Assembly: GCA_014143165.1 (NCBI GenBank)
Contig: GCA_014143165.1_4843.1
Length of the DNA stretch: 45,838 bases
Reading direction: 5' to 3' (one strand)
Source: a phage
Of this stretch, positions 803 through 41,280 are shown piece after piece. The stretch's first letter is position 1, and each line of letters opens with the position of its first letter. A program made the translations under genes and the position numbers. The notes below the pieces were generated by a model that was not told the DNA's origin, searched no databases, and saw only the letters and a program-made list of their open reading frames with translations.

Positions 803-4603
<3,801 letters not shown>

Positions 4604-4604
<1 letters not shown>

Positions 4605-6979
4605 TATTCGGTTGCTCTCCTGTTGGCGTTGTAGTTCCTACCGATGCTTTGCCCTATAGGTCCGTTGTTCTCAATATCACTCACAATCGTCTCAATTGTC
4701 ACGCTGCCGTCACCATTATCTCTGGCGCTGCTGCTAACCTGCGCTGAGCTGTTGTTGATGACGTTATTATAAACCACAACGCCACTGCTACCTCCGGTAA
4801 GGTCTTTATTGCTGATTACTGAACCATCGTTGCCTGGAATCATATACTGGCGACCGTTGGATGCCTGGAATATTTCTGGTGCGTTTCCCTCGCCCACTTC
4901 GTACATACTTCCGGCGCTAACAGGGCCACCATTTTTTCGCTTGCCAGCAATACCCATTGCCAGTGCGCCGAGAACGGCACCTACACCAATTGCAGCCGCG
5001 CCACCGAATGAGCCGATTGATGCCACGATTGCCGCTGGAGTCCATGCCGCCGTGGTGGTTGCTGCTGCCGCCGTTGATGCTGCTGTTGTGGTTGCCAGCC
5101 CTGCTGTTTGCGCTGCTGTGGTGGTAGCTGTTGCCGCAACCTGCGCAGTCTGCCCCATAACGGCGGATTTAACCCACTGAACTCCCATTTCAACAAAGCT
5201 GTTTACCAGAGAATTCAGCACCGTAGAGCCGAGGCTGCGCATTGCATCCTGAACGCTCATTGTGCCTGTGAGCAATCCAGTGATGCTGTTTGATGCTGTG
5301 CTCATCGCTGAATCAAGCGCCGTGCCGAACAATTGCGCCCCGAGGCTTTGCTGCTGCCATTCAGCCCACATCGCATCCATTCTCTGCTGGCGATACTGCG
5401 CTTCAATTGCTGCGCGAGTCTGCTCAATCTCCGTTATTTTCTGCGGATATGCTGCGGCGTAGGCGTCAAGGTCAGCCATGCGTTGCTGGTATTCGCTATC
5501 AATGCCAGTCGTTGGAGACGCAATGGCACGCAATCCCTGATATGATTTTTCTACGCGCTGCTTTTCCTTCTCCGCCGCCGCCTGTTCCTTCAGTGCGCTT
5601 TTCTGGTCCCAAATCTTCGCAGCGTACTCGCCAGCCAGTTTTATTTGCTCCTGAGTGGCAGCTTTGCCAAGCGATTGTTGCGCGTTGAGGATGGCTTGCT
5701 CGCGGGATAGTTCGCTGGTAGATGTTGCATTTAGCATGGTTTGCTGGCGTAATTTCTCCAGCTTTTCAGCTACTGATTCAGCTTGTCGTTCTTCGGCGCT
5801 TTTGCCCTTTCCTTTTCCTTTTTTGTCTTTTGTTGGTGCTTGTGCAATCTTCAGGTGTTTTGTTGCTTCAGCCTGTTTCTTTGTCTGCTCGTAACCTTCT
5901 GCTGATGCCTTGACGAATCGCTCGACCTGATCGTTATATTGTTTTTGCTTCTCAATATCATCATCACCAAAAAGCGCATCGACTCCCATCTGCGCCCATG
6001 CGCCCGGGTTTAGCTTAGAAATGACAGTGGCGAGAGATAAAATCTTATCGCTTGTGCTGGTTGATTTGTCGCCGAGGAAATCAATGTATTTTGCCAGCTG
6101 GTCGATAATCTCTACTGCTGTTTTTGATGCACCAGTGGCATCGTTAACGGCAACCACAAGTTTGGAGAATGAAACTTCAAGAGAACCAACAGCCTGATCC
6201 ATTGTGCGAGGAAGTTTTTCAAACTCAGCATTGACCACGCTTGTCCTGTCCTGAATGGCATTTAGCGCATCTTCTGCTGTCAGTTTGCCATCGAGCATTC
6301 TGGCGCGAAGTTCACCCATTGAAATACCAAGACCCGCCGCAATCTGGCGAGCAAGCTCAGGCATCTGCTCAAGGATGGAGTTAAATTCTTCGGCGCGGAT
6401 TGTACCAGAAGCAATTGACTGACCGAACTGACGCAGGGCGTTCGCCATTTCTTCTGTTGATGACCCGCCGATTCGACCTATTTTTTGCAGGGTATCGGTA
6501 AGGTTCAGAACCTGCGCATTTGTCGCGCCAGCCTCCTTCAGTGATGACGTTAATGTTTCCCACAACTTCGTAGTGTCACTGAGGCTTGCGCCAGTGGTTG
6601 AGGCGATATTTGCCAGTGAACTGAATGTTTCGTTCGCGGTTTTCGCATCAGTTGATAATCGAGCAATCCTTGCCTGAAGCTGAGTCATGTTATCGGCAAC
6701 CTCAAGGAATCGCTTTCCCCATTCGATAATCAGTGACACGGATATTGCGCCAGCAAGAGCTGTCATCTGCGTTTTTAGCCCTGAAGCTGCGCCGCCAGCA
6801 TTCTTCATCCCACTGCCAGCATTTCTGGCGTTTTTATCCAGCTTGCCAAGCGCGCTTGTGGTTTTGTTGGTTGATGATTCAAGGTCATCTAAAGTCTTAT
6901 TGGCTGTTGTCGCACCAGCTTTCAGGCCTTTAACATCCATCCCGACTTCATAGACAATTCCGCCGACTTCTTCAGCCAT
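4604..6979 (-). CDS. Tail tape measure protein
   Basis: 791-aa ORF, long alpha-helical Ala/Gln/Lys-rich sequence with C-terminal hydrophobic Ala/Thr/Gly segments (ATTTAA repeats). Located between the chaperone and the tip genes. Confidence 0.9.
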
Positions 6980-7695
6980 TATGTATTCCTCGCTTTTTTC
7001 GCTTTGCGTTCAGCCAGTGCCTTCATACGCTCGCGGTCTGCTTTAGCCTGATCGTACTCTGCCGCGCGCTCTTCTTTCGTTAACCCTTTCGGCTCTGGGT
7101 ATTTATTTTTAATCATCATCTGAAACTCTGTCATAGACAGGTTTTCAGCTTCGTCACGTGTCATATCGAAATGCGTGCGTGCTGAGATGATGTATTGCGA
7201 CGCATGAAACTCGTTTGTGGTTTTCTTCCCCCGCTCTTCCAGACGTTCAGGCACTTTGAGTGGCGACTTGCCAATGATGCCGTGCTGCATCAGGTTGCGC
7301 GCAATAATAATAATGTCACTCACTGGCATCATGCCAGGAACGTATCGCACGCCGCGTGGTGTTGGCTTCCATCCACCAATCAGCACTGAAACATCATCTT
7401 CGCAACATGACTGCATGACAATATAGGCCGCGCTCAGCACGTGTCTACCATACACAGGCTTGCTGATAGTTTTCATAACCTGCATCTGAGCACCAAATGG
7501 CAGGTATTCTACGTGCTGCAATGGCGCAACATAATCAATGCCATTGAGTCTGGCGTACACCTCGACGATTTCTTTTGGTGTGCCGATTTCATTCATTGCG
7601 CGGAATGATGGCTTAAAGAAAAAACTTCTGTCAGAAAGCGAGATGCGCATCTCTCCGATTTCTGTTAGTGGCGTGCGATTGCTCATGTTTTGCAT
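6979..7695 (-). CDS. Putative tail assembly chaperone (single ORF; positional)
   Basis: 238-aa ORF directly upstream of the tape measure, with a basic/acidic helical C-terminus. No second overlapping frame typical of G/GT was found. An alternative start at 7686 (MSNRT) has a better AGGA spacing. Confidence 0.5.
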   Translation of the reverse strand: MQNMSNRTPLTEIGEMRISLSDRSFFFKPSFRAMNEIGTPKEIVEVYARLNGIDYVAPLQHVEYLPFGAQMQVMKTISKPVYGRHVLSAAYIVMQSCCEDDVSVLIGGWKPTPRGVRYVPGMMPVSDIIIIARNLMQHGIIGKSPLKVPERLEERGKKTTNEFHASQYIISARTHFDMTRDEAENLSMTEFQMMIKNKYPEPKGLTKEERAAEYDQAKADRERMKALAERKAKKARNT

Positions 7696-31291: not shown

Positions 31292-32716
31292 TTATCTCCT
31301 GCGCCGGATTAGCATCCCGCTACCGCGCTGGACGATGTGATCATTAAGTGCGTAACGAACCGCATCCCAGTAGTGGTTATATGCATCAACAATATCAGTC
31401 AGCACATTCCCTGTCAGCTTATCGACCTTGTAGCTGTACATTGCAGCTTCATTCTGCATCTCCTTGCATCGTTCGTGAATAACAATGCCGTCACAGCCGC
31501 GCAGCCACGTTACACCATCTTCAACGCTACCTGGCCATTTCGTGCATGGATGAATATCAAATCCAGAACGCTTTATGTGGCTGATTGTTTCAGGCCGAGC
31601 ACAGTCGGCATACCATCGTGCGCGCTTAGCCATCGGGAATGATTGTTGCATCGCGGCTGGCGTGTCAGTAATCTCAAGCCCAACCCTGCCATACTCGCGA
31701 TTAATATAAATGTTGCGCCGTCCACCTGGTAATTCTTCGATGTAAACCTCAACCATCGCGGTAGGGTCAGTGGAGAAACCGAAGTCCATACCGAAGTATG
31801 GTCCATGCCATTCAGGTTTAACCTCAAAGTTGTCGACGCGCCATTTGCCGCCGAAGACTTGTTCGTCGCTGCGCTTGTTGAAGGATCCCATCCAAATCCA
31901 GCGATAACGGTCGTAATCAGTTCGCTTCATTTGCTCCATAGCGGATGGCAACGGCGTATCCCAGAACCACGGGTTGTCTGAATAGTTACATTCGATAATC
32001 AGTATTTCATCATTTTCGAATATGCCATCAACCATCTGTGAGTGATAGGGGGCAATCCAGTTTTTCCACGTCGGGTCTGTGTCTTTGTTGGGGTTGAATG
32101 AGCACCACAACTCAGAGTTTGCAGCACGGATGGTAGGCACGAGAATATCCCAGCTTGTCTGGCTGACGTTCTCTGCTTCCTCTACCCAGCCAACGGTAAT
32201 GCCAGCAAAACCTTTAACCGTAGTCTGGTTGCGATACAACCCTTTGAAGCGGAATTTAGCTTTGGTCTTCTTGTGTGTTATCTCGTTGTTGATAACACGG
32301 AACTCAGCTGACTCACCCTTACGCGCTATTTCGTCGCACAATTCCTGATAGCTTGAGTCTTCAATGGATTGCTGAATCTCACGAAAGCAGGCGAAACGGT
32401 CAGGTCGAAACCTTGCACGCTCAGTAAGTATAGTGATAATCGTTCTCGTCTTACCTGACCCGCGGCCACCGTAGACAAACTTGAATCGTTTGGGATAAAG
32501 CAGGCGCTCCAGTTTTGCAGGAATCAGGTGGTCGGCATGATTAGTTACATTGGTCACATCATCAACGCCAGTGGCGGTCATCCTTAACCGCTTAATGACA
32601 TTCTTCTGCATGTCGCAGATGCCAAAGATAGCTGACTCTGCAACATCAGTCATTGCATCATCAATCTGCGCTTCCAGCTTTTCGATTGCTAGAGCGGAAA
32701 GGCGTTTACGAGCCAT
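31292..32716 (-). CDS. terL: Terminase large subunit (PBSX / Terminase_3 type)
   Basis: 474 aa. It has the Walker A motif YGGRGSGKT and nuclease-domain acidic motifs in the C-terminal half. Confidence 0.9.
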   Translation of the reverse strand: MARKRLSALAIEKLEAQIDDAMTDVAESAIFGICDMQKNVIKRLRMTATGVDDVTNVTNHADHLIPAKLERLLYPKRFKFVYGGRGSGKTRTIITILTERARFRPDRFACFREIQQSIEDSSYQELCDEIARKGESAEFRVINNEITHKKTKAKFRFKGLYRNQTTVKGFAGITVGWVEEAENVSQTSWDILVPTIRAANSELWCSFNPNKDTDPTWKNWIAPYHSQMVDGIFENDEILIIECNYSDNPWFWDTPLPSAMEQMKRTDYDRYRWIWMGSFNKRSDEQVFGGKWRVDNFEVKPEWHGPYFGMDFGFSTDPTAMVEVYIEELPGGRRNIYINREYGRVGLEITDTPAAMQQSFPMAKRARWYADCARPETISHIKRSGFDIHPCTKWPGSVEDGVTWLRGCDGIVIHERCKEMQNEAAMYSYKVDKLTGNVLTDIVDAYNHYWDAVRYALNDHIVQRGSGMLIRRRR

Positions 32717-32852
32717 TGATTAGCCCCTGCAAAACAGTCATCACCTCTTCATCGGTCATTGCTTTATCAAATGTAACGCCGCGACTACTGCTGTTGCGTG
32801 GCAATAGCACCTCATCACATTTTGATTTATAGTTATTTGCTTCATCATCCAT
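32706..32852 (-). CDS. Hypothetical small protein between terS and terL (48 aa)
   Basis: The in-frame ATG at 32852 of track ORF 32706-33059 gives MDDEANNYKSKCDEVLLPRNSSSRGVTFDKAMTDEEVMTVLQGLINGS. It overlaps the TerS stop by 8 nt and the TerL start by 11 nt. Confidence 0.35.
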   Translation of the reverse strand: MDDEANNYKSKCDEVLLPRNSSSRGVTFDKAMTDEEVMTVLQGLINGS

Positions 32853-33264
32853 TCTGCTGCTCCAGTAATTTCTCCAGTCGCTCAAGTCGCGCGGCGAGTT
32901 CGGTGACTTCTGCAATATCCAGTCCTGTCCTGATAACTTCAGCAAATGTCTTGCCAATGTCCACAGGCATGACGCCAGATGCGATGCCTCGAATAACGGC
33001 ATCAATCTTCTGAACGGGGGTTCCATCATCAGGGAAGTCCACCTCAAACACCGGGGCAACAGGTTTAGGTAATGGGCTGAATCGAACGATAAGCTCCTTC
33101 ATCATCGCGGTGTCACGTTCAATCATTGCCATCTCAACGATGGTGTCATAGAGCTTTTCCTCACTAAACCCCTTTCTCTCAAGAGCTTCAACGAGCAACT
33201 TACGCTTGTCTTTTCCGCGTTTATTTTGCGGTTGATTTTCTTTACTGAATAGCTTTTTAGCCAT
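32845..33264 (-). CDS. terS: Terminase small subunit (positional)
   Basis: 139 aa with a basic N-terminus (KENQPQNKRGKDKRK) and a helical oligomerisation-like C-terminus. Located directly upstream of terL. Confidence 0.6.
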   Translation of the reverse strand: MAKKLFSKENQPQNKRGKDKRKLLVEALERKGFSEEKLYDTIVEMAMIERDTAMMKELIVRFSPLPKPVAPVFEVDFPDDGTPVQKIDAVIRGIASGVMPVDIGKTFAEVIRTGLDIAEVTELAARLERLEKLLEQQNG

Positions 33265-35979: not shown

Positions 35980-36009
35980 CTCTTCAACCTCACTTGTTTC
36001 GATGAGTTC

Positions 36010-36038
36010 AATCTACATCAGATGTGATTCTACGTCAA
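36010..36038 (-). promoter_or_regulatory. Leftward early promoter TTGACG-17-TAGATT
   Basis: Minus strand: TTGACG (36033-36038), 17 nt, TAGATT (36010-36015). It contains two motif copies, GATGTAGATT (36010-36019) and GACGTAGAAT (36027-36036). Confidence 0.65.
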
Positions 36039-36204
36039 CACACAGAGAAAGAAAAAGAACGACTAAATGTTAGTGAACGTTAGCTTACATGCATAGTTAC
36101 ATGTATCACTAATAGTAACCTTTGTTTATTACCTCTATAAAGTATATTAAGATCTTCTTTATATTTATTATAGATATTAATACCTTACGCTACAGAAAAA
36201 CGAA

Positions 36205-36230
36205 AACCAGCAATTAAGCTGGTTATTTTT
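36205..36230. terminator. Bidirectional hairpin between the early promoter and the iteron region
   Basis: AACCAGC-AATTAA-GCTGGTT (36205-36224) has T-runs on both strands (ATTTTTTAG on plus, TTCGTTTTTC on minus). Confidence 0.5.
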
Positions 36231-36252
36231 TAGTGGTTTTTAGTATTTTTTT

Positions 36253-36480
36253 GCTTCCCGGGCTTCCCGTGATTTCTGGTAAGCGTTTTTTTCTTTGTTT
36301 TCAGTAGCTTCGTAGTGTTTTTTGTATCGCTTCCCGCTTCCAAGAAAAATAATTTTTGAATTTTAAAACTCTCAATTTTTTCGAAAATCTTCTCGGGAAG
36401 CGGGAAGTTGGGAAGCGACCACTTAAACCATTGATTTTTCTGTATTTCCGCTTCCCGGGTTAAAATAAACATTGGGAAGC
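36253..36480. repeat. Iteron array GGGAAGC / GCTTCCC around an AT-rich core (putative replication origin)
   Basis: GCTTCCC at 36253, 36262, 36329 and 36450, plus a degenerate GCTTCCA at 36336. GGGAAGC at 36395, 36410 and 36474, plus GGGAAGT at 36402. The AT-rich spacer at 36343-36390 separates oppositely oriented copies. The array lies immediately upstream of the primase/helicase operon. Confidence 0.6.
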
Positions 36481-36647
36481 CAAATTATTGAAAAATAAAG
36501 AAAAGTTGCCACTCTGGAAGCTGTTATACACCTGTTGGAAATTGTTGTCAACAACCCGGAGCCTGGATCAGCTGCGTGGAATATGCTTGCTGATGTGTCT
36601 TTTTTCCTTTATTCTTTTTTTTGCCAAAAACCAAGCGGAGGTGAGTG

Positions 36648-36878
36648 ATGAGCAACGTGAAGAACGACTACAGATTTGGCAGTGCGATTGGCGAGGTCTG
36701 GGATTTTGTGCGTGATATGTTGGTTGGTGAGTGTAAGGAGTTTAACTTTGATGAGTTAACCGCTAATGAAGGATTAAGGGGATTCAGAGTTAACCTTCAT
36801 AAGGTTGCAGTGCGGAACGGATGGATGTTTAAAACACGAGCTAAGGCTGGTGGTTTGTGGGTTAAGCGGATTAAGTGA
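36648..36878 (+). CDS. Hypothetical protein
   Basis: The ATG at 36648 has GGAGG 6 nt upstream. 76 aa. First gene of the rightward replication operon. Confidence 0.55.
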   Translation: MSNVKNDYRFGSAIGEVWDFVRDMLVGECKEFNFDELTANEGLRGFRVNLHKVAVRNGWMFKTRAKAGGLWVKRIK

Positions 36879-37312
36879 GGTGTTGGGATATGAAAAGGTA
36901 CTACATTGAGGCAGTTGGGCCTGATGGTAAAAAGGTGTATGCCAGCGGTAGATGTGGTTTTCTGCATGATTTTACCTATGCCAAGTTTTTCAAAACAATA
37001 GAGGAGGCTGAGAGGTATATGGCGTTGCGGAAGCCGCATCTCCCATGTGAAATAAAATGCAAGGAGCAAAGGGTAAAAAAACGGGCCGCGTCTGTGCGGG
37101 AGCAAAAACCGACAATGGAGGGAGAGGCTCGAAGCTTCGTCTACCGACTTGGTTTGGGTAAGGGAAAGCATTTTGTGTTTGATGATTTTGCGTTGATAAG
37201 GAGTATTGAGCAGTTGAGAATTGCGCTTTCCGTAGTTGGTAAGAAGCTGCAAAAAAAATTCAGTGTCAAGATGGTTGCACGTAATACCGCTTATGTGGTG
37301 AGGGTTAAATGA
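36875..37312 (+). CDS. Hypothetical basic protein
   Basis: 145-aa ORF, coupled to its neighbours by overlapping start/stop codons. Confidence 0.55.
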   Translation: MRCWDMKRYYIEAVGPDGKKVYASGRCGFLHDFTYAKFFKTIEEAERYMALRKPHLPCEIKCKEQRVKKRAASVREQKPTMEGEARSFVYRLGLGKGKHFVFDDFALIRSIEQLRIALSVVGKKLQKKFSVKMVARNTAYVVRVK

Positions 37313-39642
37313 TGATTGGTTATGAAGATTACCGCAAATGTGGCTTCCCTATTATTGGAATCCATGCAATGGATATCGACCGCAATTGCACATGCGGTGA
37401 TCCAGAGTGCAATGCTGCTGGTAAGCATCCGGTTATGAGTAACTGGCAGCTTGGAGTTATATGGGCTGATGACCAGATTGAAAATATGGCTGAATATGGT
37501 CAACTGCAGTCATTCGGTGTCCTTGTGAATGGTTATCTGGTCGTTGATATTGATCCACGCAACGGAGGTAATGATGGATATGAATCTCTTTGTGATGCCT
37601 TAGACGTAGAGCTTGCTGACGAAGCTGGTTTTACGGTTAAGACTGGCGGTGGTGGTCGGCACATCTATTACAAACTTCCTGAAGGAATAAAGCTGCGCTC
37701 TCATGACAGAAGGTTTAAGGGTATTGACTTTAAATCATCTGGTTTTGTTGTTGGCTGTGGTTCTTTTCATAAAACCGGAAACTTTTATGAGGCCGAGCAT
37801 GGATCCCCTTCAGAGATAACTGAATGTCCATCTGAACTTATTGAGCTTTTGTTGCGCCCTGAGAGAACAGAAGACGAGGTTTTCACGCTTGATAGTAAAA
37901 ATTACAGCATTGCCGAAATGGAGGATATGCTCAAATACATCAAAGATGGTGATGAGTATGACCCATGGCTTCATGTAGGTATGGCTATCCACGAAGCTAC
38001 AGAAGGCAATGGTTTTGAGCTTTGGGATAGATGGTCATCGCAGTTCAGCAAATACAGAGCTGAAGAGATGGACGCAAAATGGCACTCCTTTGGAAAGGAC
38101 GGCGTTAGCGAAAAGATAACCGAAGCAACGCTGGTTTATCTCGCGCAAGAGGGAGGGTGGGTAAGGCAAGTAACTTTTGAGGCTACTCCAGAGGAAATTG
38201 AGAAACTTGAGTCTTTCGAGCGAGAGATGGCAATGGGTGTTGGGGAATGCCCTGTAGAGTACAAAAGTGTTGATGTCCGTTATCCCCCTGGATTTGTTGG
38301 TCGCCTTACGGCGTGGATTAATAAGAACTGTGCAGAGAAGCGAGAGAATATTGCAGCACTTGCTGCATTGCACGCTGCATCCATGATTTGCGGTGCGTCA
38401 TCTGATATTTACCTTACAAACAGGAAGGCTTTGCCAAACCTGTTTGCTGTTGGTATAGCTGGTTCAGGTTCTGGTAAGGGTGATGTTCTTGCTGCGCTAC
38501 AAAAGATAATTGATTGCTCAGGATTGAGCAAGACTGTCGCCGGTAAGATACGTTCAGAGCGTGCGATATATGAAGGTCTTTGCGCTAACCAGATGTTTAA
38601 TATCATCATGGATGAGATTGGGATAAAACTTGGGAGTGTTGTTGGTCAGAAAGTAAGCGAGTACAACATGGCAACCGCTGGTGCGATCATGGAGGCTTAC
38701 ACGTCAGAAGTTCTTTATTGTGACCAGCGGGTTACTGAGGATTTCATTAAGTCTTTCGAAAAAAGAAAGGCTATGCTGTTAATGGCTATTGAGGAAAATG
38801 AGATACAGGCAGACCCCGTAGACATTAAGTGTCAGTTTGATGATGTGATAAACAGAATTGACGGAGCTATAAGGAATCCATTTTTTTCAATCTTTGGTGT
38901 GTCTACTGATGATCAGTTTAAGCGACTTATCACTGAAGAAAACATTAAGTCAGGTCTTATGGGTCGCGCAATGATTATGCAGGAGTTACAGGAGATTGCT
39001 GACGAAAACGAAAACGTAAACTACTGTGATCTACCTATGGATATGCAACTGACCATAAAAACAATAATAAATGGCGGAACGGCTGGGCACAAAAACTGGA
39101 CAGACTCAATAATCAGTCAAAAAGAAAGACGGATTATAAAAGCTACGCCTGAAGTTTCTCAGCTCGCTAAAGAGTTCTTCTCATGGATTAAAACCGTTGC
39201 AAGAAAGCATGTAGAAAATGGTACTGGTTATCACCCATTGATAAACAGATGCGCCGTGAAGGTGGCAAAGATTGCTGGCATTCTCGCGTGCGATACTGGC
39301 GTCATAACCATGGAGCACTTGAGATATGCGGTAGCATTAACAATTAAATCAACAAGCGATCTGATGATGCGTGCTGACAGTATCGCCGGAGCGAAGTCTA
39401 AAGCTATGGAAGAAAGAATTGAAGGTATTTTCTCCATGGTTAAAGAATATGTTAAGCGTGGAATGACCAAAACAGCAATGGTTAGAGGGGTAGCAAAAGA
39501 AGGTGGGTATAAACGTGCTGATGTCGAGAGGTGCGTAGAGAAGTTGTTATCAGATGGTATTATTTGCATTGATGAAAATGCAAAAAGAACATCTCACAAC
39601 GTAATAATTTACAAATTAACAAATGATGAGGTTGAGATATGA
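37309..39642 (+). CDS. Bifunctional primase-polymerase / SF3 (D5-like) helicase
   Basis: 777 aa. The N-terminal prim-pol-like region (GYLVVDIDPRNGG ... GGGGRHIYY) is followed by a PriCT-like middle region (YDPWLHVGMAIH ... WDRWS) and a C-terminal P-loop (GIAGSGSGKGDV) with Walker B IIMDEIG. Confidence 0.8.
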   Translation: MMIGYEDYRKCGFPIIGIHAMDIDRNCTCGDPECNAAGKHPVMSNWQLGVIWADDQIENMAEYGQLQSFGVLVNGYLVVDIDPRNGGNDGYESLCDALDVELADEAGFTVKTGGGGRHIYYKLPEGIKLRSHDRRFKGIDFKSSGFVVGCGSFHKTGNFYEAEHGSPSEITECPSELIELLLRPERTEDEVFTLDSKNYSIAEMEDMLKYIKDGDEYDPWLHVGMAIHEATEGNGFELWDRWSSQFSKYRAEEMDAKWHSFGKDGVSEKITEATLVYLAQEGGWVRQVTFEATPEEIEKLESFEREMAMGVGECPVEYKSVDVRYPPGFVGRLTAWINKNCAEKRENIAALAALHAASMICGASSDIYLTNRKALPNLFAVGIAGSGSGKGDVLAALQKIIDCSGLSKTVAGKIRSERAIYEGLCANQMFNIIMDEIGIKLGSVVGQKVSEYNMATAGAIMEAYTSEVLYCDQRVTEDFIKSFEKRKAMLLMAIEENEIQADPVDIKCQFDDVINRIDGAIRNPFFSIFGVSTDDQFKRLITEENIKSGLMGRAMIMQELQEIADENENVNYCDLPMDMQLTIKTIINGGTAGHKNWTDSIISQKERRIIKATPEVSQLAKEFFSWIKTVARKHVENGTGYHPLINRCAVKVAKIAGILACDTGVITMEHLRYAVALTIKSTSDLMMRADSIAGAKSKAMEERIEGIFSMVKEYVKRGMTKTAMVRGVAKEGGYKRADVERCVEKLLSDGIICIDENAKRTSHNVIIYKLTNDEVEI

Positions 39643-40034
39643 TTAATTACAAGTATCTGGTGATGAGAGGTTTGTATGACTATTTTGAGTCAGAAAATCC
39701 TGAGCGCGCACATGATAACGCAATATCCATGATGACAGGAAAGCACCTGATGGAAGTTTACTACTGGAAAATGCCTGTATTCCGCTGCAATATGGGTATC
39801 TGCATTGATGATGACGTACTGTTTTGTCGAATACAATATGAAAACAATGTTGGCATAGTGACAGCATCGTACAGGGATGTTGCAAGAAAATCCGGGAACT
39901 GGCATCCAAGCGAAGTATTTGCTGGTGACGCACTATTTAATTTCTGTAAGGCGTTTGGTGTTTTGTATGAGGATGTAAGCAAAGAGTATAGCGGAAGGCG
40001 TGAGAAAGATAGCTTAAGCTCAAAAGGAGCATAA
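39639..40034 (+). CDS. Hypothetical protein
   Basis: 131-aa ORF, ATGA-coupled to the primase gene. Confidence 0.55.
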   Translation: MINYKYLVMRGLYDYFESENPERAHDNAISMMTGKHLMEVYYWKMPVFRCNMGICIDDDVLFCRIQYENNVGIVTASYRDVARKSGNWHPSEVFAGDALFNFCKAFGVLYEDVSKEYSGRREKDSLSSKGA

Positions 40035-40035
40035 C

Positions 40036-40062
40036 AAAAAGCCCGCAAACGCGGGCTTTATT
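40036..40062. terminator. Bidirectional intrinsic terminator
   Basis: AAAGCCCGC-AAAC-GCGGGCTTT is flanked by A-runs and T-runs. It lies between convergent genes. Confidence 0.8.
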
Positions 40063-40303
40063 ATTTAACAATCCATTTTGTAACAGCTGGCCTTAAATCT
40101 TCCTTTCTGAAAAATCCACCAGTAAGTTTCTCGGCATCAATTGCTGCTGTAGCGCTAATTCTTCCTCTTGACACCCACTGATTGACAGCCTGTTTTGACA
40201 CACCAAGAAACCTTGCCAGTTGTGATTGCCCTCCAACATAATCAATCAGCTCTGACAGCTTCGTCTGTTCCATTTCTCTTATCTGTTCTGCGATGCTTTT
40301 CAT
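40061..40303 (-). CDS. Cro / YdaS-like HTH transcriptional regulator
   Basis: The ATG at 40303 (MKSIAEQIREMEQTKLSELIDYVGGQSQLARFLGVSKQAVNQWVSRGRIS...) has GAGGT upstream. It carries a classical HTH with the QAV.QW signature of the Cro/YdaS family. Confidence 0.7.
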   Translation of the reverse strand: MKSIAEQIREMEQTKLSELIDYVGGQSQLARFLGVSKQAVNQWVSRGRISATAAIDAEKLTGGFFRKEDLRPAVTKWIVK

Positions 40304-40332
40304 GTGTTTACCTCTGCTATCTGTATGCAGCA

Positions 40333-40394
40333 ATAATGAACTCAAAAAAAATTTTCGTCAAGGTATTGCGTTTACCATCACGTTGACGTATCTT
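40333..40394. promoter_or_regulatory. Divergent promoters (leftward TTGACG-17-CATTAT; rightward TTGCGT-17-TATCTT)
   Basis: Minus strand: TTGACG (40356-40361) and CATTAT (40333-40338). Plus strand: TTGCGT (40366-40371) and TATCTT (40389-40394). Confidence 0.45.
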
Positions 40395-40437
40395 TAAGTC
40401 ACACCAGCGATATGCTGAGTTAAATCGAGAGGACACT

Positions 40438-41280
40438 ATGAGCTTATCAATGATTCAAAAACCAAAACCAGCAGCGCCAATCATAACATTGGTTGGTACT
40501 CCAGGTGTAGGCAAGACAACTCTTGCGGCGCTATTCCCAAACCCAGTGTTTATTCAGGCTGAAGAGATCACTGGTGTTTTTGATGACTGGGATGATGAAA
40601 AGAAACCTGATTCATTTCCTGTTCTGAAGCGCGCTGACGCTAAACGCAAAACAAGCACAAAGGATGATTTGCTGTCACAGCTACGCGCATTAATTACTGA
40701 GGAACATAATTACAAAACGCTTGTAATTGACTCAATCACAAGCCTGCATTCAATGTTTGAGCATGAGGTTTGTGAAAATTACGGTGTTGACAACGTTGGT
40801 TCTGCGGCTGGTGGTTACAACAAAGGATATATTGTTGTTTCTGAAATGCACGCTGAAATAATAAATGCATGTAAGTATCTTCGCAAAGAAAAAGGGATGA
40901 GCATTATTTATCTTGCGCACGCAGGTGTTAAAAAGATGAAGAATCGCCCTGATGCTGATGAATACACTGTTTACACACTTGACATGCATGATGCTTCTGT
41001 TTCTGGTTATGTGAATCTTAGTGATGCTGTTATTTACATCAGGAATGAGGAGTTTGTGAAAGGTACTGAAACTGATAAAAAAGGTCAGGTAACTAAGTTT
41101 GGTAAAGTTGTTCAGACTGGTCAGCGAGTTCTTATTACCTCTGGTGATGGTCGCATTGGGTATGTTAATGCTAAAAACAGATACAACCTTGAGCCTGAAA
41201 TTCCTTTTGAAAAAGGTGAGAACCCGCTTTTGAGTGAGATTAAATATTATGCATCTCTACGAGATAACCAAACAGCTTAA
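40438..41280 (+). CDS. Sak4-like RecA-fold ATPase (AAA_24 family)
   Basis: 280 aa. Walker A LVGTPGVGKTTLA is present. Gene context (Gp157 and a DUF669-type SSB downstream) is the typical Sak4 recombination module. Confidence 0.7.
   Translation: MSLSMIQKPKPAAPIITLVGTPGVGKTTLAALFPNPVFIQAEEITGVFDDWDDEKKPDSFPVLKRADAKRKTSTKDDLLSQLRALITEEHNYKTLVIDSITSLHSMFEHEVCENYGVDNVGSAAGGYNKGYIVVSEMHAEIINACKYLRKEKGMSIIYLAHAGVKKMKNRPDADEYTVYTLDMHDASVSGYVNLSDAVIYIRNEEFVKGTETDKKGQVTKFGKVVQTGQRVLITSGDGRIGYVNAKNRYNLEPEIPFEKGENPLLSEIKYYASLRDNQTA

Follow-up and report, generated by a model that had tools for sequence, protein, structure and literature searches.

How replication starts in the enterobacterial siphophages related to Shigella phage Sf11, Escherichia phage Sa179lw and Klebsiella phage YX3973 is a question raised by a short intergenic locus in one member of the group. 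The DNA analysed here, referred to as the window, is the whole of contig GCA_014143165.1_4843.1 (assembly GCA_014143165.1), a stretch of 45,838 nt that represents a ~46-kb siphophage genome. In the literature searched no origin has been described for these phages, or for the family of primase-helicases that contain a DUF3987 domain. A first-pass annotation of the window had suggested that repeats located in the 665-nt intergenic gap 35980-36645, upstream of a primase-helicase operon, form an iteron-type origin. Comparison with relatives supports that reading, while the firing of the origin and the binding of its reader are what we infer. We put at about two in three the probability that the array at 36253-36521 is the phage replication origin, that it functions like the origins of the staphylococcal pathogenicity islands (SaPIs), and that it is bound by the C-terminal winged helix of the helicase.

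A head-to-head repeat array

The copies of the repeat listed in the first-pass annotation are all exactly placed. GCTTCCC occurs at 36253, 36262, 36329 and 36450, with the degenerate GCTTCCA at 36336, and the complement GGGAAGC is present at 36395, 36410 and 36474, with GGGAAGT at 36402; the three nearly contiguous copies at 36395-36416 are spaced 7 and 8 nt apart. Two further one-mismatch copies were found on the plus strand, GGTAAGC at 36278 and TGGAAGC at 36515, such that the array contains 11 GGGAAGC sites (seven exact and four with one mismatch) that conform to the consensus Y-GGGAAGC-G. With one mismatch tolerated, the rest of the window predicts 1.09 sites, against the 11 observed. Of the nine exact copies in the 45.8 kb, seven fall inside 228 nt (Poisson tail ~2e-16), the remaining two, at 37343 and 44921, being isolated. 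GGGAAGC is the sole 7-mer in the window that clusters at five or more copies, and 100 dinucleotide shuffles yielded no 7-mer cluster larger than six copies, a size reached once. Besides 7-mers that overlap GGGAAGC, the only other cluster listed is GACGGAA, which occurs four times within 250 nt at 729-980, inside a long open reading frame (803-3289, minus strand).

The array comprises two leftward-facing blocks, a rightward-facing block of three copies, a smaller inverted pair and an outlying copy (Table 1). The left and right inner blocks, which form a 12-bp dyad (CTTCCCGCTTCC / GGAAGCGGGAAG), are disposed head-to-head around a spacer. This spacer, previously judged by eye to be strongly AT-rich, is indeed 81% AT, compared with 54% for the whole window, but extends over 52 nt (36343-36394) rather than the 48 nt first assigned to it. 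The view that the region is non-coding also holds, as the minus-strand open reading frame 36230-36472 is not kept in 91%-identical relatives, nor are the other open reading frames that overlap the repeats.

Relatives keep the layout and replace the repeats

The array was compared across 15 loci, a set widened by a search with the helicase protein. The full-length query was needed, as a homologue search with the C-terminal 218 aa of the helicase alone returned only two matches. The conservation of the iterons, a check suggested with the original proposal, takes a particular form in these relatives, with the arrangement remaining constant and the repeat sequence changing from phage to phage. Twelve loci fall into five repeat types, all of which display blocks of two to three tandem copies inverted around a spacer of 33-57 nt. 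GGGAAGC-type repeats occur in the window, ECO95, the IMG/VR contig L005, Sf11-type loci, L026 and L027; GGCAWWTAG-type repeats are found in Sa179lw, L020, YX3973 and L025 (AAATAG-type in L025); AGACTTTAG repeats are present in VLCpiS13b and L028, and TCTGTAAA repeats in L030, where the array has three copies on one side of a 36-nt AT-rich spacer and three in inverted orientation on the other. Sa179lw and YX3973 have the flanking promoter, AT-rich block, hairpin and helicase in common with the window at 87-94% identity, and their gap contains no GGGAAGC. Instead Sa179lw carries GGCAAATAG and YX3973 carries GGCATTTAG, as tandem copies in opposite orientation across the spacer, as in the window; the YX3973 array includes an inverted repeat that is perfect over 22 nt. 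Distant phages, with helicases that are 32-35% identical, also have short repeats in both orientations beside the helicase gene, namely GATAGTA in Pseudoalteromonas phage H103, GGGATC in Brucella phage Tb and AAGGTTAAAG in Vibrio phage L3. A constant layout combined with turnover of the repeat sequence is what would be expected of a protein-binding array that co-evolves with its reader.

The location of the array relative to the helicase operon also varies. In VLCpiS13b, L028 and L030 the array is 3′ of the operon, after one or two small genes and a terminator, and in H103 it directly follows the gene. In the relatives with this other gene order it is the hairpin that terminates the helicase operon just ahead of the repeats. 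As the array in these phages lies 3′ of the operon, just past the terminator, the comparison suggests that the window-type gene order arose by inversion of the helicase segment, with the terminator and repeats staying put.

The primase-helicase and its winged helix

The protein that we propose as the reader is a 777-aa primase-helicase with Pfam matches to Prim-Pol, PriCT-2 and DUF3987 (64.9, 67.7 and 44.5 bits; cut-offs 22.8, 22 and 27, respectively), which also matches phrog_3022, ‘DNA primase’ (E 7.7e-177). The model of the full-length protein has a predicted local distance difference test score (pLDDT) of 88, and its best Foldseek matches are subunits of the minichromosome maintenance (MCM) helicase, with E-values down to 7e-5; archaeal Cdc6/Orc1 bound to origin DNA is also matched. 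Neither phmmer nor the family profile of the helicase detected anything significant among PDB chains, SaPI Reps included. A model of aa 600-777 (119 sequences; pLDDT 90.9) ends in three helices followed by a β-hairpin (H-H-H-beta-beta), for which Foldseek returned winged-helix regulators with weak E-values. As modelled, the protein consists of an MCM-like AAA+ fold followed by a winged helix-turn-helix (wHTH) at its C-terminus, fused to an archaeo-eukaryotic primase (AEP). This is consistent with the description of DUF3987 as an MCM-related superfamily 6 helicase with a C-terminal wHTH, a predicted phage replicative helicase that is often fused to an AEP primase (PMC4889955, PMC5862659). One PriCT-DUF3987 protein was shown to unwind DNA (PMC11724360). 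These three reports on DUF3987 helicases (PMC4889955, PMC5862659, PMC11724360) mention no origin or iterons, the word ‘iteron’ being absent from PMC11724360.

Two kinds of reader had been proposed in the first-pass annotation, the small proteins encoded beside the array and the primase-helicase; the comparison argues against the former and for the latter. Only ten of the 777 helicase columns lack a residue common to the GGGAAGC and GGCAWWTAG classes, and eight of these ten lie at aa 737-764, a degree of clustering with a chance of ~3e-8. In the model the class-separating residues are located in helix 3 (737, 740 and 748), in the next strand (751, 753 and 754, within 751-754) and at the tip of the wing (763 and 764). 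Helix 3, the strand that follows it and the wing tip are the usual DNA contacts of winged helices. Over aa 1-699 the window helicase is 94-95% identical to those of phages in the other repeat class and 70% identical to those of L026 and L027. Across aa 733-770 (nt 39505-39618), which comprise helix 3 and the wing, the order is reversed, with 68% identity to the other-class phages and 76-79% to L026 and L027. In a whole-genome protein comparison, the products that are near-identical to those of Sf11 but diverged in Sa179lw and YX3973 were the helicase, the 131-aa protein encoded after it and the Cro-like protein, all three belonging to a single linked block. As the array and the helicase patch are separated in the window by ~2.9 kb of well-conserved sequence, physical linkage is a weaker explanation for their joint variation than functional coupling.

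Other candidate readers did not follow the repeats. For the small proteins (phrog_28700) only one of 79 alignment columns separates the repeat classes, and their similarity tree cuts across these classes. The Sf11-type small protein is 85-87% identical to that of Sa179lw, yet Sf11-type repeats are GGGAAGC, and the window small protein is only ~46% identical to that of Sf11, though both phages use GGGAAGC. The Cro-like repressor was rejected because neither its helix-turn-helix nor the region of its own promoter differs among the four reference phages, which include different repeat classes, and the terminase and packaging proteins show no co-variation with the repeats. The reader is likely the winged helix of the helicase rather than the small proteins, a view that draws on a correlation across few independent switches.

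A model for initiation and its difficulties

In the mechanism that we propose, the primase-helicase would bind the 7-bp repeats through its C-terminal winged helix. The divergent orientation of the blocks on the two sides of the spacer would lead two helicase rings to assemble in opposite orientations, one on either side. The helicase would melt the 52-nt AT-rich spacer, the proposed site of first melting, and would load itself, without a separate loader, after which its own N-terminal AEP domain would act as the primase. Among the neighbouring genes no loader-type family, such as DnaC or lambda P, was detected.

Several points weigh against this proposal. Independent switches of specificity number only about three or four. 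Sa179lw-type phages and YX3973, in which helix 3 and the wing are identical, have repeats that differ at two of nine positions (GGCAAATAG vs GGCATTTAG). The helicase patch that co-varies adjoins, in the DNA, the N-terminal half of the 131-aa gene, and this half too has eight class-separating columns; a single mosaic patch could carry both, and the 131-aa protein could be the true binder. The window array is 5′ of the operon and between divergent promoters, where regulatory sites would also be expected, and Yersinia phage P400 (L029) has no clear array of this kind. The literature searched contains no binding or replication measurements for this phage group. A minimum in the cumulative GC skew near 36000 was not used as evidence, since it coincides with the switch in coding strand and so is not independent.

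Comparison with known replication systems

The closest functional parallel is provided by the SaPIs. The SaPI Rep reads iterons of 5-6 nt through a C-terminal winged helix, with a primase fused to the helicase in SaPI5; the origin contains six to twelve iterons, two or more of them to either side of an AT-rich centre and in opposite directions; and two hexamers are thought to load, one per side, without a separate loader, with a specificity that differs among related elements (PMC9371898, PMC7581432). The window resembles this system in the number of its iterons (11 copies of the 7-mer), in its opposed blocks (two minus-strand copies facing three plus-strand copies across the AT-rich spacer, an arrangement also found in relatives), in the predicted winged helix at the C-terminus of its helicase, and in having repeats that are specific to the element. 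The two systems differ in that the window array is upstream of the operon, ~2.9 kb from the region encoding the winged helix (the helicase gene itself starts at 37309), whereas the SaPI array is immediately 3′ of rep. In addition, the window helicase is a DUF3987 MCM-like protein with an AEP Prim-Pol, no SaPI Rep was among the Foldseek matches listed, the repeats are 7-9 nt rather than 5-6 nt, and the host element is an enterobacterial tailed phage, not a satellite. By analogy, the SaPI resemblance is one of mechanism and not of family, and the array would represent a self-loading-helicase origin of SaPI type in a virulent-type enterobacterial siphophage. Since the concept is well established for the staphylococcal islands, the array would add to a known mechanism and not disclose a new one.

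The P4 alpha protein unites primase, helicase and a C-terminal origin-binding winged helix in one polypeptide of 777 aa, and short repeats occur in both orientations. The window helicase has the same length, the same three activities predicted in one chain, and repeats in both orientations. Membership of the P4 alpha family was nevertheless rejected on the fold of the helicase, which is MCM/Orc-like and not superfamily 3 (SF3), and on the lack of a second repeat site. P4 has another type of primase and an SF3 helicase, in contrast to the AEP Prim-Pol and MCM-like helicase of the window; the Pfam scan of the window helicase revealed no D5-type domain, and the P4 origin-binding domain was not among the winged-helix fold matches. 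P4 also needs its second repeat site, crr, while the window has no second GGGAAGC cluster. With respect to domain content (Pfam and model), the window helicase is like BcMCM from a Bacillus cereus prophage and other fusions of AEP primases to MCM-like proteins, which have an AAA+ helicase and a C-terminal wHTH and are encoded by phages and mobile elements (PMC2715239, PMC3273815, PMC4889955, PMC5862659). That literature describes no cognate origin or iterons, and the link between the winged helix and a repeat array is the addition made by the present analysis.

In SV40 large T antigen and papillomavirus E1, inverted pairs of motifs beside an AT-rich tract direct the assembly of two oppositely oriented helicase hexamers. 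The analogy between these systems and SaPI-type origins has been drawn previously (PMC7581432). The viral proteins differ from the window helicase in being SF3 enzymes of eukaryotic viruses with an N-terminal origin-binding domain of another fold, and the likeness is functional only. The iteron origins of plasmids (pSC101, F, R6K and RK2) and the lambda ori/O system have mostly direct repeats of 17-22 bp that are bound by a dedicated, non-helicase initiator, and initiation at them usually requires DnaA boxes as well as a helicase loader. The window shares with them repeated initiator sites beside an AT-rich unwinding region and, possibly, a site for integration host factor (IHF). It differs in its 7-9-nt units and inverted blocks, and in that DnaA boxes are not enriched, with one 1-mismatch match in the region (36524) and a window total of 90 against a shuffle mean of 107. 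No Rep_3, RepA, TrfA or lambda O family was found among the neighbouring genes.

Alternative explanations

The location of the array, in the gap between the leftward promoter (36038-36010) and the rightward helicase operon, would also suit operator or enhancer sites for the divergent promoters. These could serve autoregulation by the winged helix of the helicase, or another phage protein, with no role in the start of replication; the initiators of iteron plasmids commonly autoregulate through their own iterons. However, every copy is at least 67 nt upstream of the putative rightward promoter, neither core promoter is overlapped, and the bidirectional terminator plus ~170 nt separate the copies from the leftward promoter. 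Relatives with the other gene order have the array downstream of the helicase operon, past the terminator, and not at the operon promoter, and the one recognisable transcription factor encoded nearby, the Cro-like protein, has a helix-turn-helix that is invariant across repeat classes. Head-to-head blocks around an AT-rich spacer are, furthermore, the layout described for helicase-loading origins (PMC9371898). We consider an exclusively regulatory function unlikely; a regulatory role in addition to the origin role is possible. The array could also be an origin whose repeats are read by the 131-aa protein, which would then recruit the helicase. This protein (15 homologues found) is translationally coupled to the helicase, conserved throughout the group, and 99% identical to that of Sf11 compared with 85-88% for those of other-class phages, with eight of its 131 columns separating the two main repeat classes. 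These columns, however, hold mostly conservative exchanges (Y/F, M/L and I/V) and adjoin the helicase patch in the DNA, where they may be hitch-hiking. The protein, which is mildly acidic (isoelectric point 5.9), matches no DNA-binding family, and is merely 55-61% identical in L026 and L027, which share the GGGAAGC repeat. Overall, the co-variation of the 131-aa protein with repeat class is weak. It may be a partner of the helicase, but recognition of the repeats by it is quite improbable in our estimation, and the helicase winged helix remains the preferred reader.

Two further explanations were considered. Both strands of 36235-36530 fold far better than shuffled sequences (z = -5.9 and -5.1), and the dyads are kept in relatives though their sequences differ, as illustrated by the perfect inverted repeat of YX3973, which would be consistent with repeats that act as RNA or single-stranded DNA hairpins rather than as protein sites. 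Equal stability on both strands is, however, expected of symmetry at the DNA level, and GGGAAGC also occurs as tandem direct copies and extra single copies that would be superfluous for a stem. An Rfam scan of the region returned no family at E up to 1, and the repeat sequence co-varies with a protein domain. A purely structural role is very unlikely on these grounds; hairpins extruded after melting could contribute to origin function, which is partly compatible with the helicase-loading model. That the region is instead a physical genome end, with a terminal-repeat boundary or packaging start and with the repeats as packaging signals, is suggested by the Sf11 record (L022, NC_054636), in which an exact 335-bp duplication occupies both ends (1-335 and 46120-46454). 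This duplication, perhaps a real terminal repeat and perhaps an assembly overlap, begins at TTTTTTTGCTCGGGAAGC, 11 nt to the left of the first GGGAAGC that reads rightward, has its other end within the small gene gp1, and corresponds approximately to 36384-36700 of the window; the leftward operon, moreover, leads to the terminase genes 3-4 kb away. Against this, a terminal overlap of 127 bp in the Sa179lw record lies at an unrelated position and looks like the assembler artefact typical of a circular or permuted assembly, and the ends of IMG/VR contigs from close relatives are scattered over many sites. Nor do the packaging proteins follow the repeats: the window large terminase is only 59% identical to that of Sf11 despite the same repeats, while the TerS-like protein and its YX3973 counterpart are 98% identical, though the repeats of YX3973 differ. 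The literature on Skate and Sf11 is silent on termini. A genome end at this locus would therefore be a most improbable reading, and the array is better viewed as an origin.

A possible exchangeable specificity cassette

Arrays of this kind were seen in phages ranging from those of Escherichia, Shigella and Klebsiella to Brucella, Vibrio and Pseudoalteromonas phages. We advance, tentatively and with rather more doubt than conviction, the wider view that the winged helix of DUF3987 primase-helicases and its cognate 6-9-nt repeats may constitute a specificity cassette that can be exchanged within a very large family of phages. If this were the case, the helix-3/wing patch and the origin would be replaced jointly by recombination, also where 3 kb separates them. 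Closely related co-infecting phages would replicate only their own genomes, a SaPI-like ‘replication identity’, and residues 737, 740, 763 and 764 would amount to a recognition code that can be read. The outcome for the present group is a precise candidate origin, a candidate reader domain and a short list of predicted specificity residues, which may be of use in the annotation of phage genomes and in the design of minimal or rebooted ones. A helicase-read origin would also account for the joint evolution of two small patches 3 kb from each other in phages that are otherwise nearly identical.

Features flanking the array and neighbouring genes

Table 1. Features of the repeat array and of the surrounding region of the window.
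Feature	Position	Strand	Remark
Bidirectional intrinsic-terminator hairpin (AACCAGC-loop-GCTGGTT), left boundary of array	36205..36224	.	scored on both strands
Left outer block: two exact GGGAAGC, 9 nt apart, T-tract before	36253..36268	-	
Degenerate copy GGTAAGC	36278..36284	+	relative ECO95 has GGAAGC there
Left inner block: GCTTCCC and GCTTCCA, contiguous	36329..36342	-	
Spacer, 52 nt, 81% AT	36343..36394	.	dyad centre ~36368
Right inner block: GGGAAGC, GGGAAGT, GGGAAGC	36395..36416	+	
IHF consensus WATCAANNNNTTR match (AATCAATGGTTTA)	36424..36436	-	consensus match only
Second, smaller dyad: GCTTCCC 36450-36456 and GGGAAGC 36474-36480, 17 nt apart	36450..36480	.	inverted repeat
Outermost degenerate copy TGGAAGC	36515..36521	+	
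Putative weak rightward promoter TTGCTG-17-TATTCT of the small-protein/helicase operon	36588..36616	+	by eye, missed by promoter scan
Two small basic proteins, phrog_28700 (76 aa; 140 aa)	36648..37312	+	first in operon
777-aa primase-helicase: AEP Prim-Pol, PriCT-2, MCM-like AAA+ core (DUF3987), lid, C-terminal winged helix	37309..39642	+	
Winged-helix domain of the helicase, aa 700-777	39406..39639	+	model
131-aa protein, phrog_33005, translationally coupled to the helicase	39639..40034	+	

The non-coding features first described around the array were largely borne out. The leftward promoter is sigma-70-like (minus strand, 36038-36010), was found by the promoter scan and is conserved in relatives. 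The hairpin with T-tracts on both strands has a 7-bp stem and a terminator score in both directions, and relatives carry a hairpin at the equivalent position, with different stem sequences in L025-L027. The AT-rich stretch at 36100-36200 contains 77% AT. An AT-rich block at 36067-36183 (76% AT), between the leftward promoter and the hairpin, is ~90% conserved in relatives of any repeat class and holds a 41-nt near-palindrome (36134-36152 / 36156-36174). Since the block is conserved whatever the repeat class and is outside the array, it probably does not belong to the specificity-bearing core of the origin.

On the right of the array, the putative rightward promoter aligns with better ones in Sa179lw (TTGCCT-17-TATATT) and YX3973 (TTGCGC-16-TATAAT). 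The sequence TTGTCAA(C) at 36546-36553 (TTGTCAAC), between the last repeat and this promoter, is present at the same relative position in the window, ECO95, Sa179lw, YX3973 and Sf11-type loci, and hence in all repeat classes; possible functions are those of an upstream promoter element or of a conserved binding site. The IHF-consensus match within the array is one of two in the window, a total not above chance, and equivalent IHF-type matches were read by eye in Sf11-type loci, L026 and L030. As consensus matches, these hint at a bending factor, which might be IHF.

The leftward operon beyond the gap encodes small proteins, followed by an HNH endonuclease and terminase. The packaging genes are mosaic. 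The TerS-like protein (32845-33264), so close to its YX3973 counterpart, is 44% identical to that of Sf11, and the large terminase (31292-32716) is ~59% identical to those of both Sf11 and YX3973 and has no match in Sa179lw. The rightward operon comprises the two small genes (36648-36878 and 36890-37312), the primase-helicase gene and the 131-aa gene. The small proteins have isoelectric points of about 10, and the C-terminal half of the 140-aa protein is a second copy of the domain found in the 76-aa protein; some relatives have one such gene and others two. In Brucella phage Tb (L031) a small open reading frame at 277-504 occupies the equivalent place and, by eye, displays a similar C-terminal pattern. 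The rightward operon is followed on the opposite strand by the Cro-like repressor gene and then by genes for Sak4, Gam, SSB and a second helicase. The repressor is of the Cro/P22 type (40061-40438), has divergent TTGACG promoters, and is nearly unchanged group-wide, including in phages described as lytic. In L021 (5762-9910), L028, L029 and L030, the segment that spans the Cro-like, helicase and 131-aa genes is inverted with respect to Sak4 and the array, compared with the window (35980-40440).

Additional sequence elements accompany the arrays of several relatives. A second repeat, TTAGAAGCGTTAGA, flanks the TCTGTAAA array of L030 in inverted orientation (6710-6725, 7127-7142 and 7196-7212), and TTAGAGACG is found in L029 (7002-7085), which suggests a further binding protein in these phages. 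Homopolymer C/G runs of 6-10 nt border the AT-rich spacer in many relatives (L027, 3519-3585; L026, 3514-3568; L006, 2483-2490; L028, 7457-7464; L029, 6934-6992; L030, 6807-6813), the window having none. In L027 and L026 a C-run and a G-run are opposed across the spacer, and such runs could be start sites for priming.

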